NCBI GenBank assembly: GCA_963724325.1
Contig: CAVRUH010000005.1
Span: 128,001-192,000 of the forward strand
DNA from: Waddliaceae bacterium
Lineage (GTDB): Bacteria > Chlamydiota > Chlamydiia > Chlamydiales > Waddliaceae
DNA length: 64,000 bases
Direction: 5' to 3'
Part shown: positions 15,839 through 39,474 of the stretch, piece by piece
Layout: each line of letters opens with the position of its first letter
Numbering within the stretch: the first letter of the stretch is position 1
The notes under the pieces: generated by a model
Seen by the model: the letters and a program-made list of their open reading frames with translations, nothing else
Told to the model about the DNA's origin: nothing
Databases searched by the model: none
Position numbers and translations under genes: made by a program

Positions 15839-15882
15839 GATCGTTTGATATTTCAAATGAATAACTTAAATGTGGGGAATTG

Positions 15883-17251
15883 ATGTTACAAGCACTACAA
15901 AGAATCAACCAAATTCCAGAGCTTCGCTCTAAAATTGTGTTCACTCTCCTGATGCTCATCGTATACCGTATTGGCGGTTTTATACCCGTTCCCGGAATCA
16001 ACGGCGAAGTAGCTGTCGGCTATTTCCGCCAACTGACCGGCGGTGGTCAAAACCTATTCCAAATGGTCGACATGTTCTCAGGCGGCGCGTTTTCTCAAAT
16101 GACCGTCATCGCCCTTGGCGTCGTTCCCTACATCTCAGCTTCTATCATCATGCAACTGTTTGTCGCCCTTTGGCCTTCTCTCCAACGCGAAGTTCGTGAG
16201 AACCCCGACCCAAGGCAAGCGAAAAATCAACAAGCTTACCAGACTAATGACCATCGGATTGGCCATCATCCAATCTACCCTGTTCGCAAAATACGCAATA
16301 GGCATGAACCTTTCACGTCCAGGTATAGTTTCTAGCGATTTACTACAATTTCATATGTTCGGCTCACCCATACTTTTTTACCTAATTTTTATCGCAACCA
16401 TGACTACCGGTACAGTATTCCTCATGTGGGTAGGTGAACAAATCACCGAAAGAGGCATCGGAAACGGAATGAGCATGATCATCACCGTAGGTATCTTATC
16501 TCAATTCCCATCCGCAATAGGACTCATCATCCAACAACTCAACCTCGACTCCCAAAACGCCGGCCAAATGAACTTCGCTTCCGTCCTCGTTCTTGTTGCA
16601 CTATTTGTATGCGTCACTCTTGGAACCATACTTATCATCCAAGGCCATCGACGCATACCACTCCAATATGCTCGCCGCGTTGTCGGAAGAAAAGAAGTTC
16701 AAGGCGGAAACTCCTACATCCCACTCAAAGTTAACTATGCAGGCGTCATACCCGTGATCTTCGCTTCATCTCTCCTGATGTTCCCAGCTACACTGGCAAC
16801 ATTCCTTGGAGGAACCTGGCTATCTACACTATCAGGTTTCTTAGATCCACGCTCATCCACTTACCTTTTCTTCTTCGTCATGCTCATCGTATTCTTTACC
16901 TACTTTTGGACCGCTACTCAATTCCGCCCCGACCAAATAGCTTCCGATATGAAGAAAAATGGCGCCTTCATACCTGGCATCAGACAAGGCAAACCAACAC
17001 AAGAATATCTCGAATCCACTATGAATCAAATCACCTTTATTGGAGCACTATTCTTAGCAATTATAGCCATCCTTCCCAACCTCGTTGGAAAATTTCTTAA
17101 TGTACCCTCAACCATAAGCTACTTTTTTGGCGGTACCTCACTACTTATTTTAGTCGGTGTCGTTCTCGATACAATGAAACAGATTGAATCCCACCTCCTC
17201 ATGAAGCGATATGAAGGCTTCATGAAAAAAGGAAGAATTAGAGGAAGATAA
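15883..17251 (+). CDS. secY: Preprotein translocase SecY (extra C at ~16210)
   Basis: [33 protein letters not shown]; two overlapping ORFs join at ENPD-QGKRK. Confidence 0.98.
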
Positions 17252-18149: not shown

Positions 18150-18211
18150 ATTTTTCATGTAGGATGTTGGTATGTCCCAACACCTACAATAACAATTTAG
18201 GAGTGTTTTAC

Positions 18212-19326
18212 ATGTCAGTTAAATATGGCAAATTTGAAATGCCGCAAAAAATCTCAGTAGACGAAAAAACCGCATCCAATACCTTCGCACAATTCGTTGC
18301 CGAACCATTTGAAAGAGGATTCGGTCACACCATCGGAAATTCCATGCGTCGGTATGCTGCTATCTTCCTTGAGGCACCTGCCATCATTGCTGTTCGTATC
18401 GAAGGGTTCCCCATGAATATATGTCCATCGAAGGCGTTATCGAGGATATGACGAACATCATCCTTAATTTAAAAGGAGCACTCCTACGTAAATTACCTAC
18501 CGACGAAGCACCAAACGCCCGTGGATACCGCATCCTTACTACCATTCTCGAAATCACTCAAGAAGATCTCGATAAAGGTAAAGGTCAATATGAAGTCACT
18601 CTTGGTGATATCGTTGAAAGAGGAAATTTTGAAGTCGTAAACCCTGAACTCAAAGTATTCACTGTCACCAAACCAATGAAAAAGCAAATCGACCTCCGAG
18701 TTGCTTTTGGTCGCGGTTATGTCCCTTCCGAACGCCACATTGTTTTTGATAAGACTTCAGATGAAATCCTCATCGATGCAGCTTTCTCACCTGTACGCCT
18801 CGTCAATTACCACGTAGAAAATACGCGTGTGGGACAAGATACTGATTTCGATAGATTAATCATTGAAGTCACTACTGACGGCAGAGTTACCCCAATCGAA
18901 GCCCTAAGTTTCGCCTCGCAAATCATCAATAAACATTTCGAAGTGTTTAATACACTGAATGCTCAATCACTCAGTTTTGATGAAGAAGAGGGCGTTTCAA
19001 GTTCCGATCAAGATGAAATCATGGAGAAACTCGCTCTTCGTATTGACGAAATTGAACTTTCCGTCCGTTCAACAAACTGCCTAAGCGGTGCAAATATCGA
19101 AACAATTGCAGAACTCGTTTCAATCCCAGAACGTCGTATGCTTGAATTTAGAAACTTCGGTAAGAAGTCACTCAATGAAATTAAAGCAAAACTAACCGAA
19201 ATGGGCCTCGGACTTGGCATGGACCTAACAAGATATGGAATCACTGCTGATAATGCGAAAGAAAAAGTCAGAAAATTCCAAGAAGAACAAGCAAAAAAGA
19301 AAAATAATTTTGAAGAAGCAGGATAA
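18212..19326 (+). CDS. rpoA: RNA polymerase alpha subunit (frameshift at ~18405)
   Basis: EPFERGFGHTIGNSMRR; HEYMSIEGVIED; ELSVRSTNCL; NFGKKSLNEI. Confidence 0.98.
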
Positions 19327-21821: not shown

Positions 21822-22121
21822 AGCGGTGATATTCTCCCTTTCCCTACACAAGACGTGTGAGTGCGATGGTCACCCCTTTAGCCTGGTCATTTCAGCTTCC
21901 CGACCAATGAATTTGGAAAGACTCATTTTTATTGCTCCATTTTTAATCTTATCATAAACTTTTAGCTTTATAAAATCAATCAGCAAAATGCCATTTGTCG
22001 ATTTGTTGATCGTTTTTGAATTGATCAAATTCAATCAACAAAAGGTTATTTGTCGATTTACTGATGATTTTTTGTCATAAAATTTGAGGGCACCAGTCCA
22101 TCAACAGTTTGCAAAAGACTT

Positions 22122-22202
22122 GGCCTTCGCTTCGCTACGGCCGGCGGCGATTTTGGGCGCTTTGCGCCCAAAATCGCCGCCGGCCGTAGCGAAGCGAAGG
22201 CC
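22122..22202. repeat. Perfect 39-bp GC-rich inverted repeat (3-nt loop)
   Basis: ggccttcgcttcgctacggccggcggcgattttgggcgc ttt + exact reverse complement, then T-rich tract. Confidence 0.95.
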
Positions 22203-22252
22203 TTTCTTTTAAGTTTTGAAATACCAGGCTTGACCTCTAAAGAAAAAAAGAC

Positions 22253-22286
22253 TTGCAATTAATGTTGTAATGTTGTAATATTACAA
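22253..22286 (+). promoter_or_regulatory. Sigma66 promoter overlapped by candidate TrpR operator
   Basis: TTGCAA(22253)-N17-TAATAT(22276); TT-GTAAT-gttgtaat-ATTAC-AA (22265-22286); half-sites repeat every 8 bp. Confidence 0.8.
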
Positions 22287-22308: not shown

Positions 22309-22365
22309 ATGAAACATTTTATGATACACCAATTTCGTTGGCGTTTTTGGGCAACAGCCCGATAA
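22309..22365 (+). CDS. Candidate Trp leader peptide MKHFMIHQFRWRFWATAR
   Basis: AAGGA upstream of ATG; two TGG codons; gggc-aaca-gccc hairpin at its 3' end; lies between operator and first gene. Confidence 0.75.
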   Translation: MKHFMIHQFRWRFWATAR

Positions 22366-22427
22366 TACACCCTATTTTACAAGTTTATATTTTATTATTT
22401 TTAATTATTTTATAAAAGGAGATTTCC

Positions 22428-23360
22428 ATGTTTTCAATTAATAAATTGACAGATACTGTTATATTGCCCTATAACGTAGAATCTTATCAAGAGCTCTATG
22501 CTGAAGAGTTTATAACAAGCTTTACGCATAGCGCTCTTGCCGAAGGTCCAACCGATTTAGAGATGGCCAGAAAGTTCACAAAACAGCTGAATGAGGCCGC
22601 ATTGCAAGCGAAGTTACTCTACATTTCTTTTAACGATAAAATGTTTAAAGGAAATGTACTGAAAGATGGTGCTTGTAGTGCTATTGTCTTTCGTGTAGCT
22701 AAAGAAGCCATTAGACTTCATAAATTTCTTAATCAGATTATTCAACTTAAACCCTCGAGCAGAGAAAGTAGTTTCGGGCTTCATTTTGCTCGGTATGTCT
22801 TTGAGCTAGAAAGTATGGCGACTGGAGGGAATAAAGAGCCTGCAAAGAGTGAACAGAAGATGATAAGAACCGAACAAATGGCTCTAAATATGATTACGGT
22901 CAATCGTAATGTATTAAATAAAGGCAATGCTGTTGCTGAGAAAGTTGGAGCTATGGCTCCATTTTATGGTTTAAAGGTTGTTGAGTCGAGTTCAGAACTT
23001 CGGGTAAAGAAGAATGAACAATTACAAGTTGAATTGTCACAACTAAAACTCGGGTTAATAGATGGCGTTTATATTCTAAGAATTATTCAAGAAGAATATA
23101 ATCACAAACTTGAGGTGAAAGGGCATTCCATTCTCTATATCAAAAGAGGTGAAGCTGAATATTATTTTGATCCAGCGCTAGGATGTTATCGTCTATTTGC
23201 GGAGGTCGCTAAAACGAATTTGATCTATAATGCATTGTTGAGTGCTAACGAAAGATTTGGAGTGGACACTCTGAGTTTCCATCGTTTAGTCGATGCAAAA
23301 CATAGTGATTTTTCTTCTCCTAATGAGGGATTTTTAAACATTTCAAAAGGAGAAAAATAA
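22428..23360 (+). CDS. YopT/C58-like papain-fold cysteine protease; contains no Trp
   Basis: Cys-His-Asp order and contexts DGACSA / GHSILY / YYFDPALG; SD AAGGAG. Confidence 0.65.
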   Translation: MFSINKLTDTVILPYNVESYQELYAEEFITSFTHSALAEGPTDLEMARKFTKQLNEAALQAKLLYISFNDKMFKGNVLKDGACSAIVFRVAKEAIRLHKFLNQIIQLKPSSRESSFGLHFARYVFELESMATGGNKEPAKSEQKMIRTEQMALNMITVNRNVLNKGNAVAEKVGAMAPFYGLKVVESSSELRVKKNEQLQVELSQLKLGLIDGVYILRIIQEEYNHKLEVKGHSILYIKRGEAEYYFDPALGCYRLFAEVAKTNLIYNALLSANERFGVDTLSFHRLVDAKHSDFSSPNEGFLNISKGEK

Positions 23361-37333: not shown

Positions 37334-37657
37334 TCAGATAGTTCCGTTCAAGGTTCCGTATTCTACTAAAGTTTTCACAAAGAAAACATGTAGCTTTTCT
37401 TGTTCGAGAACATGAAGAAACTTGTTACATTCTTCTTCGCTTAAAATAAATACAATTTCTATTGGAATATTAGAGGCTAATTCAAAAAAATGTTCCTCAT
37501 GTATGACTCCATGGCGCCCAAAGCCTGCTACAGCTCGAAATGCAGAACCACCATGTATTCCGAATTCCTTTGCTTTTTCAATAAGCCATTCATAGAGAAG
37601 GATTCCTTTATGCTTGATATTTTCATGAGTATAAAATTTTAATTGGATTCCGTTCAT
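37334..37657 (-). CDS. DUF190 (PII-like) protein
   Basis: GIHGGSAFRAVAGFGRHG...LASNIP; follows crcB. Confidence 0.9.
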   Translation of the reverse strand: MNGIQLKFYTHENIKHKGILLYEWLIEKAKEFGIHGGSAFRAVAGFGRHGVIHEEHFFELASNIPIEIVFILSEEECNKFLHVLEQEKLHVFFVKTLVEYGTLNGTI

Positions 37658-38068
37658 TTATCCTCCGATTAAATTGTAGATAAGTTTTGAAGCTGCATAT
37701 CCCATAACAACCATAATAATTGAGCCGCCTACATGTAGACCTATTAAGGTTGTAAGCCAAAATATCTCTTGTCTAGAGATAAGTGTAAAAGCCTCAGCTG
37801 AAAATGTGGAGAAGGTGGTAAGGCTTCCAAGAAATCCAGTAGTGATTCCTAATCTGATATCGTATGAAAAAAATGAGTGGTTGAAAGCTAAAAAGATTAT
37901 AATTCCCATTAATAAAGAGCCAAATAAATTTGCTGTAAGAGTTCCTAGGGGTATAGTGGGAAAGAAATGGTTGAAATATTCACCTAATTTCCACCTTAAC
38001 AATGCTCCCAAGATCGCTCCAATTGAAATACTTATTACTGCTTGCACATCTACCCCATAAAAATTCAA
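37658..38068 (-). CDS. crcB: Fluoride channel Fluc/CrcB (start may be GTG 38047)
   Basis: GAILGALLRW, PLGTLTAN, TGFLGSLTTFSTFS. Confidence 0.96.
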   Translation of the reverse strand: MNFYGVDVQAVISISIGAILGALLRWKLGEYFNHFFPTIPLGTLTANLFGSLLMGIIIFLAFNHSFFSYDIRLGITTGFLGSLTTFSTFSAEAFTLISRQEIFWLTTLIGLHVGGSIIMVVMGYAASKLIYNLIGG

Positions 38069-38189: not shown

Positions 38190-38252
38190 ATGTATTTAGC
38201 AGTCTATTTATTAGTTTCCACTACGACAAATACGACCGGCTTCCGCCGGTAA
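38190..38252 (+). CDS. Candidate Thr leader peptide MYLAVYLLVSTTTNTTGFRR
   Basis: 5 Thr codons in 6 positions; accggc-ttcc-gccggt hairpin ending at the stop; 58 nt upstream of transporter. Confidence 0.75.
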   Translation: MYLAVYLLVSTTTNTTGFRR

Positions 38253-38310
38253 CACTCCCCCTGTCCTATACATTTTATTCTATCATTAAATTCAAATAAG
38301 GAGGAAACGT

Positions 38311-39474
38311 ATGTTTCGTAAAATGCCGATTATTTTGTTGGCGGTCATTGTATTTGCGCAGTTTGCAAATCAATGGATTTCGGTGCCGTATCAATCTATT
38401 TTATATGGGATCAGTTTGACCCTAAAATCTATCATTGTTTTTGTATTGCCCTTTCTTATTTTTGGGCTTTTATTTAAAACTTCTGTGCAACTTGCAAAAA
38501 AGGCTTCAAAGATGATTCTTTTAATTTTAGCCGCGATATGCTGCTCGAATTTCTTGTCGACATTGCTTAGCTATTCTGTGGGTAATATAGTCTATCAGTT
38601 TGATCTATCCATGCCTTTTCCAAAGGAGGGATCGGCTTTGATGCCTGCATGGGAATTTACCTTTCCAAAGTGGATTGGCAACGATCAGGCGATGTTTTTT
38701 GGATTACTTTTAGGAATTATTTCAAGCTGGATCAAGCCATCTTGGGCTGGTGAGATCTCTTTGAGGCTCGAAAAAATGATTAATTTGGTTCTAAAAGGAA
38801 TTCTTTATGTCATTCCATTTTTTATCACGGGATTTATAATTAAAATGAATCATGATCAAGTTATGGAATACATTCTACGTAATTATGCTTTAATTTTTGG
38901 TGTGATTGCCTGTGCAGTTTTTTCTTACATCGCATTAATTTATTTTATTGCAAATAGGTTTCAGATAAGAGGATTTGTTCAAAGCATTAAAAACATGCTT
39001 CCTGCTGGTATTGCAGGATTTGGAAGCATGTCGAGTGCTGCAGCAATGCCTTTAACCATATTAGGGACTGAAAAAAATTCTCAAAATCCTGATCTAGCCC
39101 GCTCAATCATTCCGGTAACTGTCAATGTTCATTTAATTGGAGATTGTTTTGCGATTCCAATTTTTGCTTTTGCGGTCATGAAAAGTTTTGGAATTTCAGA
39201 TCCATCATTTTTGACTTATTTGATATTTGCTGCATATTTTGTTTTGGCAAAATTTTCTGTAGCTGCAGTGCCTGGAGGGGGAATTTTAGTGATGCTTCCA
39301 ATACTTGAAAGTACGCTTGGATTTGATGGAGAGATGCTTTCATTAATGACGGCTCTTTATATCCTTTTTGATCCTGTGATTACATGTGCAAATGTATTTG
39401 GTAATGGGGGATTTGCGATGATTATTGGTCGATTTATTAAAAATTCTACAGAGGAGGTACCTTTAAAAACTTAG
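38311..39474 (+). CDS. Dicarboxylate/amino acid:cation symporter (SstT-like)
   Basis: Multi-TM; GFGSMSSAAAMP, NVHLIGD, AVPGGG, DPVITCANV. Confidence 0.9.
   Translation: MFRKMPIILLAVIVFAQFANQWISVPYQSILYGISLTLKSIIVFVLPFLIFGLLFKTSVQLAKKASKMILLILAAICCSNFLSTLLSYSVGNIVYQFDLSMPFPKEGSALMPAWEFTFPKWIGNDQAMFFGLLLGIISSWIKPSWAGEISLRLEKMINLVLKGILYVIPFFITGFIIKMNHDQVMEYILRNYALIFGVIACAVFSYIALIYFIANRFQIRGFVQSIKNMLPAGIAGFGSMSSAAAMPLTILGTEKNSQNPDLARSIIPVTVNVHLIGDCFAIPIFAFAVMKSFGISDPSFLTYLIFAAYFVLAKFSVAAVPGGGILVMLPILESTLGFDGEMLSLMTALYILFDPVITCANVFGNGGFAMIIGRFIKNSTEEVPLKT

Follow-up and report, generated by a model that had tools for sequence, protein, structure and literature searches.

The tnaC leader of Escherichia coli is controlled by Rho-dependent attenuation, in which a ribosome stalled on the leader ORF beside a C-rich tract blocks Rho; TnaC stalls the ribosome at its own stop codon, via the nascent peptide, when tryptophan is high. 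At lambda tR1, BoxB, located between RutA and RutB, has the role of a clamp. Mycobacterial polycysteine attenuators (Ms5788A) resemble the leaders described below in having a short ORF with cognate codons near its end and no intrinsic terminator, in the pairing of this ORF with the downstream SD, in being often apparently leaderless, and in polarity further downstream, which for the present leaders is proposed (10.1101/834739). Similar pairing of a Leu-codon run with the SD of the next gene is found in the actinobacterial LEU element, and the actinobacterial cys leaders are likewise terminator-less, with polypyrimidine tracts proposed as Rho sites (PMC1262725, which also mentions tnaC). The E. 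coli leaders trpL and thrL (Rfam Trp_leader and Thr_leader) share the position of the cognate codons a few codons before the stop, and trpL also shares the combination of TrpR with leader control (PMC7755916).

In chlamydiae, putative trpL ORFs are known from Chlamydia felis and C. trachomatis (PMC3937554, PMC7755916). The trpL peptide of C. felis is printed in an article which states that no attenuator structure had been reported for it (PMC3937554). For C. trachomatis, Rho-dependent polarity is described and cis-attenuation is named as an outstanding question (PMC7755916).

Two leaders, one rich in Trp codons and one in Thr codons, are located in the 64,000-nucleotide stretch of DNA analysed here (the window). 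Comparison across genomes confirmed that both are members of a chlamydial family of attenuator-like RNA leaders, which is real, conserved and extends beyond the window.

The Trp and Thr leaders and their genes

Both leader ORFs proposed by an earlier note on this DNA were confirmed by translation (Table 1). The Trp codons of the first are located 8 and 5 codons before the stop; the second contains five Thr codons, the last of them 5 codons before the stop. The cognate codons had been described as lying immediately before a GC hairpin; they are adjacent to it, but the last one itself begins the 5' arm. Both stems consist of 6 bp, which for the Trp leader is two pairs more than previously noted, and both are present in the MFE and centroid structures; folding z-scores of the two whole leaders are modest (-2.0 and -1.0). 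The G-poor spacers, for which about 60 nt had been given, are 62 and 58 nt long, with one G each in the 36 nt 3' of the hairpin. The Trp spacer is C-rich in its first 15 nt only and contains two YC dinucleotides per 36 nt, i.e., a poor Rho site; the Thr spacer contains nine. A terminator search of both leader regions detected none on the + strand, as the earlier note had stated, and its sole match was the Thr hairpin on the - strand. Rfam scans (Trp_leader, Thr_leader, Leu_leader and other families) gave no match at the gathering threshold and nothing relevant at E<=1.

Table 1. Features of the Trp and Thr leader loci, in positions of the window
Feature	Position	Strand	Remarks
Candidate promoter of Trp leader	TTGCAA 22253-22258, 17 nt, TAATAT 22276-22281		Putative assignment
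Palindromic TrpR-operator-like site	22265..22286	.	22 nt; overlaps candidate promoter; from sequence
Trp leader ORF	22309..22365	+	18 aa, reads MKHFMIHQFRWRFWATAR-stop; relatives exist
Candidate anti-SD of Trp leader	22331..22339	+	8/9 pairs with 22416-22424; weak, -5.2 kcal/mol
GC hairpin of Trp leader	22347..22362	+	Last Trp codon (22348-22350) inside 5' arm
Spacer after Trp leader	22366..22427	+	G-poor; SD of 310-aa gene at end
310-aa ORF	22428..23360	+	No Trp residue; lead to C58 (YopT-type) peptidase family
M20-family peptidase/deacylase	23361..24524	+	Second gene of predicted operon; profile search
trpR, Trp repressor	24658..24951	+	PF01371 and TIGR01321 above cut-off
Thr leader ORF	38190..38252	+	20 aa, reads MYLAVYLLVSTTTNTTGFRR-stop
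Anti-SD of Thr leader	38214..38222	+	6 contiguous and 2 more pairs with 38299-38308
GC hairpin of Thr leader	38235..38250	+	From first base of last Thr codon to first base of stop codon
Spacer after Thr leader	38253..38310	+	C-rich, G-poor; SD at end
SDF-family dicarboxylate/amino acid:cation symporter	38311..39474	+	PF00375

The palindrome before the Trp leader is presumably a TrpR operator. A site of the type GTAAT-N8-ATTAC was found upstream of 35 of 71 trpR loci, and this linkage supports the assignment. The promoter carries an operator palindrome and trpR belongs to the operon, so that the locus has the features of a TrpR regulon member, the binding being predicted; the promoter scan reported a hexamer pair other than TTGCAA/TAATAT. 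Pfam and NCBIfam searches with the 310-aa ORF gave no match, and its top Atlas matches were Peptidase_C58 clusters (0.93-0.94, recognition value low). An orthologous operon from another family (locus L349) contains the operator, trpR, a leader with one Trp codon and the same hairpin register, a 55% orthologue of the 310-aa ORF and an M20 gene. The orthologue is fused to an alpha/beta hydrolase and is Trp-free over 493 aa; the leader forms 9/9 pairs with an SD word identical to that of the window (-9.7 kcal/mol). The 310-aa gene and the M20 peptidase (22428-24524) possibly represent a peptide-scavenging route to tryptophan, and the leader marks this Trp-free, protease-like gene and the peptidase as a likely tryptophan-scavenging operon.

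A long inverted repeat, rich in GC and spanning about 87 nt (22117-22203), lies directly upstream of the Trp promoter and is possibly a small mobile or repeat element. Elsewhere in the window, the apparent C-terminal part of a transposase-like ORF (26247-27503) resumes at the end of another one (27773-29251), which suggests that one IS was inserted into another (26247-29251); the transposases were named by eye.

The SDF symporter behind the Thr leader gave a weak, below-threshold match to SstT, and is predicted from its leader to be a Thr importer. The best anti-SD/SD duplex of this leader has -9.0 kcal/mol. Genes crcB (fluoride exporter family) and DUF190 (37334-38068, - strand) are divergent from the Thr leader, across a gap of 121 nt in which an Rfam scan gave no riboswitch.

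The genome scan for further amino-acid-rich ORFs of the same layout, proposed by the earlier note, gave seven matches in the 2.37-Mb genome versus none in the reversed genome, at thresholds fixed after the two window leaders had been seen. Four of the seven contain amino-acid runs, namely, both window leaders and two Leu-rich leaders (C1:672929-672795 and 672121-672062, both on the - strand), each located before its own gene. These genes, DUF2000 and an MFS transporter, are consecutive in this genome.

Leader families and their layout across genomes

A match to the SDF transporter was found in 110 of 400 scored genomes. The Thr survey covered the regions upstream of 70 SDF loci with at least 50% identity, including the locus of the window; an automatic test called a leader if two or more of the last 14 codons were Thr codons and a hairpin lay at the stop. 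Leaders were found before 38 of these 70 orthologous genes, and a few of the remaining 32 look like variants. The Thr leader is also present before three thrS-like (TGS/tRNA_SAD) genes. A search of 401 genomes for the Thr hairpin pattern found it 32 times, in 31 of them, versus one control match; judged by coordinates, 30 matches are located before the transporter and two before TGS/tRNA_SAD genes, read as thrS. A stricter pattern, applied GTDB-wide, gave 31 loci: 25 at the transporter, two at thrS-like genes, one at a contig end and three probably due to chance. According to depositors' labels, titles of these loci include Ca. Finniella, Alphaproteobacteria and Gammaproteobacteria; in records titled Proteobacteria or Pseudomonadota, the Thr leader precedes the transporter (L143, L145, L146, L150, L153 and L168) and thrS (L139). 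These labels suggest that the Thr module and the transporter were transferred between lineages. The term 'lineage-specific', used in the earlier note, is roughly right, but records titled Alpha- and Gammaproteobacteria also carry the module upstream of this transporter. No close SDF orthologue was found in seven genomes of the same family, the same-genus genome included.

Of 71 trpR loci, 26 are followed by a flagged short Trp ORF; 19 of these ORFs were kept by eye and seven were dropped, being chance-looking, of the long C. trachomatis type or, in one case, of uncertain start. The Trp leader is thus present at 19/71 trpR loci and in one orthologous operon, the survey having read 1.1-3.3 kb around trpR, so that operons arranged like that of the window could escape it. 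Trp leaders have two hairpin sequence types in the same register, and most of them start at or near the trpR stop. They are located in TrpR operons before trpD-like, Trp/Tyr-permease-like (both named from N-termini) and other genes. A conserved operon behind trpR, consisting of an FAD-dependent oxidoreductase, an MFS transporter and a third conserved gene, was observed at L339-L344 and L347, with a Trp leader in most of them; at L346, a POT-family peptide transporter follows a Trp leader.

Leu leaders with a conserved hairpin were found before 20 of 30 orthologues of the MFS transporter, and Ile/Val leaders before 12 of 51 brnQ loci, where the stop often lies in the hairpin loop. The test for the layout before brnQ failed in this genome and in 7/7 genomes of family f4; the layout was found neither before 20 distant SDF paralogues nor in 30 Trp/Tyr permease loci. 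Short frames that contain runs of Arg (L330, L337) or repeats of Thr/Ala (L282) were observed upstream of brnQ-family genes and may be leaders for other amino acids. In the window and in the relatives, leader ORFs with clustered cognate codons precede cognate genes, and the codon type follows the downstream gene (Thr, Trp, Leu, Ile/Val), which supports amino-acid control. The sensing codons predict substrates of orphan transporters: Thr for this SDF clade and Leu for this MFS clade.

The hairpin starts at most 2 nt from the last sensing codon in 47/48 Thr and 15/20 Trp leaders, and in 20/20 Leu leaders, a set picked by its hairpin motif. Presumably, it occupies the place of the 1:2 pause hairpin of E. 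coli. The position of the stop is more variable than the hairpin start across families: it follows the last sensing codon by 5 codons in all 48 Thr leaders, mostly by 6 in Leu leaders and by 2-5 in Trp leaders. In the Thr hairpin, codons GGC (46/48) and CGG (43/48) are kept, and the fourth codon retains its final GC with Arg, Ser, Cys or Gly as the residue; this codon choice points to selection at the RNA level. The sequence of the Thr hairpin barely varies (96.8% paired), so that covariation within it is slight, with one pair showing a double change (two cells). A consensus pause G after the stem was looked for and occurs in at most 6/37 at any one position.

The region 3' of the hairpin contains 3-6% G and 19-29% C, versus 16% and 15% in the intergenic background of this genome; C outnumbers G 5' as well as 3' of the hairpin. 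In the Thr set, which was not selected on G, 40 of 1480 post-hairpin nucleotides are G. The 'acac(t)ccc' tract, previously considered as shared by the two leaders, is not kept as a word in relatives; only its pyrimidine richness and lack of G are conserved. A second hairpin with a U-tract is present in one of 100 spacers, and there the antiterminator 2:3 duplex has only -1.4 kcal/mol; neither the intrinsic terminator (3:4 with U-tract) nor the antiterminator 2:3 of a classical attenuator was found for the leaders as a class. They are therefore not classical attenuators, and the shared design distinct from E. coli 1:2/3:4 attenuation, postulated from the two window leaders, is supported for the family. 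A -10-like hexamer 4-9 nt before the in-frame ATG was found in 24/43 Thr and 15/17 Leu leaders (9 and 4 in controls), which suggests that many Thr and Leu leaders are carried by leaderless mRNAs; such a hexamer was found in 1/18 Trp leaders, and the window Thr leader did not pass.

SD pairing, Rho and the proposed mechanism

Pairing was compared between a 33-nt region ending at the last sensing codon and either the leader's own SD region or those of other members, with the exclusion of L024 (doubtful) and L071 (start miscalled). Thr leaders pair better with their own SD than with others (z -6.8; n=48, including 12 loci added from further scans; 0 of 20000 permutations), and the same preference was found in Leu (z -2.1, n=20), Trp (z -2.7, n=20) and Ile/Val leaders (z -2.7, n=12). 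When each genus is represented by a single Thr leader, the median z becomes -5.4, a value that overstates independence, as the genera are still related. Far-upstream, CDS and spacer controls had no own-SD preference (Thr, Leu and Trp). The SD occlusion suggested by the earlier note is directly supported by this comparison, but the occluding sequence is located inside the leader ORF, just 5' of the hairpin, and not in the C-tract; the post-stop C-tract, tried as the SD partner, gave no own-SD preference in Thr leaders.

Many members (e.g., L026, L020, L146, L179, L186 and L227) have helices of 8-10 bp in which both flanks differ together. Pairing of the ORF with the SD, with covariation, as in a translational attenuator, was thus found as a family statistic and is weak for the window Trp leader. 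In 32 of 100 members (12/48 Thr, 9/20 Leu, 9/20 Trp and 2/12 Ile/Val), the anti-SD duplex falls short of -7 kcal/mol, and only 5/36 Thr leaders beat synonymous resampling at p<=0.05. Members with strong anti-SD pairing include L026 and L188, and L014 is a weak one. In equilibrium folding with a stalled-ribosome mask, which spanned only 15 nt 5' of the hairpin, the SD was opened by more than 0.1 in 23/88 leaders (13/48 Thr, 7/20 Leu and 3/20 Trp) and closed in six; masking of the two window leaders gave no opening (0.40 to 0.37 and 0.41 to 0.32).

The unstructured tract with C>G beside the leader ORF, typical for Rho-dependent attenuators, is strong in the window Thr leader and C-poor in the window Trp leader. 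The gene rho is split in this assembly by several frameshifts (C5:229300-230650, - strand) and intact in 5/5 relatives. Since secY and rpoA (window positions 15880-17251 and 18164-19326) are also split by frameshifts, and polA apparently too, the frameshifts in rho are probably assembly (indel) errors. Base composition and the intact rho of the relatives are indirect indications of possible Rho loading at the leaders.

The layout is predicted from sequence to be a new form of ribosome-mediated attenuation. The reading preferred here, with confidence a little above even, is an attenuator without a terminator, in which a released ribosome would allow both SD occlusion and Rho action, and a stalled ribosome would prevent both. 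With ample amino acid, the leader ORF would be translated to its end and the ribosome released, after which the pyrimidine-rich leader would be free to pair with the SD of the next gene, and about 120 nt of ribosome-free RNA with C>G would recruit Rho. Under shortage, a ribosome would stall on the sensing codons, thereby covering the anti-SD and melting the hairpin; the downstream gene would be translated and thus shielded from Rho. Judging from ribosome footprint sizes, a ribosome with one of the last two or three sensing codons in the A site should cover the anti-SD and the 5' arm. The hairpin may act as a pause for ribosome-polymerase coupling, or as a clamp joining two Rho-loading halves. 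Leader translation, stalling, the direction of control and the involvement of Rho are what we infer from the observed ORFs, hairpin register, spacer composition, missing second terminator, own-SD preference and linkage to cognate genes.

That Rho alone is responsible is unlikely. The pyrimidine tracts flanking the hairpin would then form a two-part Rho loading site, with SD pairing as an accessory or a by-product of composition; under starvation, the stalled ribosome would hide the 5' half, and the remaining 60 nt or so would not suffice for Rho until the next ribosome is loaded. Nearly all members are indeed depleted in G and enriched in C, which is not the case for strong anti-SD pairing, and the tight length of Thr spacers (54-66 nt in 33/37), the additional folded parts frequent in longer spacers, the C runs instead of U runs in Ile/Val members and the order RutA-BoxB-RutB at lambda tR1 (PMC4344519) agree with such a site. 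However, the own-SD preference and the flanks co-changing across genera go beyond composition, as the controls were null, and some members have one YC only in 36 nt. Control by translation alone, as in mycobacterial polycysteine leaders, is quite unlikely: the leader-SD helix would be the whole switch, and the G-less spacer would merely keep the loop unstructured for 30S loading. It accounts for SD covariation in all four families and is consistent with the -10-like hexamers near the ATG, suggestive of leaderless mRNAs as in the mycobacterial case (10.1101/834739), but does not explain why the hairpin is tied to the last sensing codon, and about a third of members, the window Trp leader included, pair weakly. 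Both layers are favoured since SD occlusion alone leaves the fixed hairpin and the weak members unexplained, and Rho alone leaves the covariation unexplained.

It is highly improbable that the hairpin and the pyrimidine tail together form an intrinsic terminator, weak or assisted by a factor, which the stalled ribosome melts directly, or that the peptide ends are arrest sequences. The absence of a U-tract, claimed from the window leaders, is true for them and for most relatives, but a loose test directly after the stem was passed by 30/88 leaders (17/48 Thr, 4/20 Leu and 9/20 Trp), several Trp leaders of family f4 have a stem, UAA and then a U run, and C-terminal residues are conserved within families. 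Spacers with about 50% T, however, make chance passes of this test easy; the stop codon would be covered by a polymerase halted at this site, so that fed and starved ribosomes should be indistinguishable, and codon choice indicates selection on RNA and not on peptide. A lack of any amino-acid control, with ORFs that arose by chance over a conserved hairpin for mRNA stabilisation or processing, is barely credible: the failure of 32/70 SDF orthologues in the leader test would fit, but each of the four codon types is linked to its own set of cognate genes, and the Thr module is found again upstream of thrS-like genes.

Beyond the preferred two-layer attenuator, a broader, less likely reading is offered tentatively, namely, one portable chlamydial chassis that would serve at least four amino acids by codon swap. 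It would consist of a hairpin that is begun by the last hungry codon and clamps two pyrimidine tracts into a Rho loading site, a fixed spacer of about 60 nt serving as a ruler, and an anti-SD within the ORF for additional translational control. This chassis would be often leaderless, present in trp operons of Chlamydia, and moved with the transporter gene into unrelated intracellular bacteria.

Comparison with known systems

The layout is concrete and mutable, and about 100 natural variants represent it, among them those in the trp operons of Chlamydia species, in which tryptophan starvation drives persistence. It bears on the cis-attenuation question (PMC7755916) and on the trpL of C. felis, for which PMC3937554 gives no structure. 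The peptide of locus L040 is one residue off the printed C. felis trpL peptide, and the full layout is present there; the C. felis trpL ORF is thus already in print (PMC3937554). The long trpL ORF of the C. trachomatis type (matching L036) is without a G-less tract, with 7 G in 38 nt. For the layout and for the Thr, Leu and Ile/Val families, no description was found in the accessible parts of the open literature, whose supplementary uORF and motif tables could list members.

In contrast to trpL and thrL of E. coli, the chlamydial leaders have no terminator/antiterminator in 99/100 spacers and no Rfam match. Unlike in tnaC, stalling would take place at hungry codons and under shortage of the amino acid. 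The actinobacterial LEU element differs by its pseudoknot fold, and translation of its leader is doubted as the mechanism; the actinobacterial polyY tracts are not conserved (PMC1262725), whereas G depletion is conserved in the chlamydial leaders. In the mycobacterial polycysteine leader, nearly the whole leader is one very stable duplex in which Cys codons pair with the SD (10.1101/834739), whereas the chlamydial leaders combine a short helix, mostly of 6-11 bp, with a separate hairpin that begins at the last sensing codon and an unstructured G-less spacer, and serve four amino acids.
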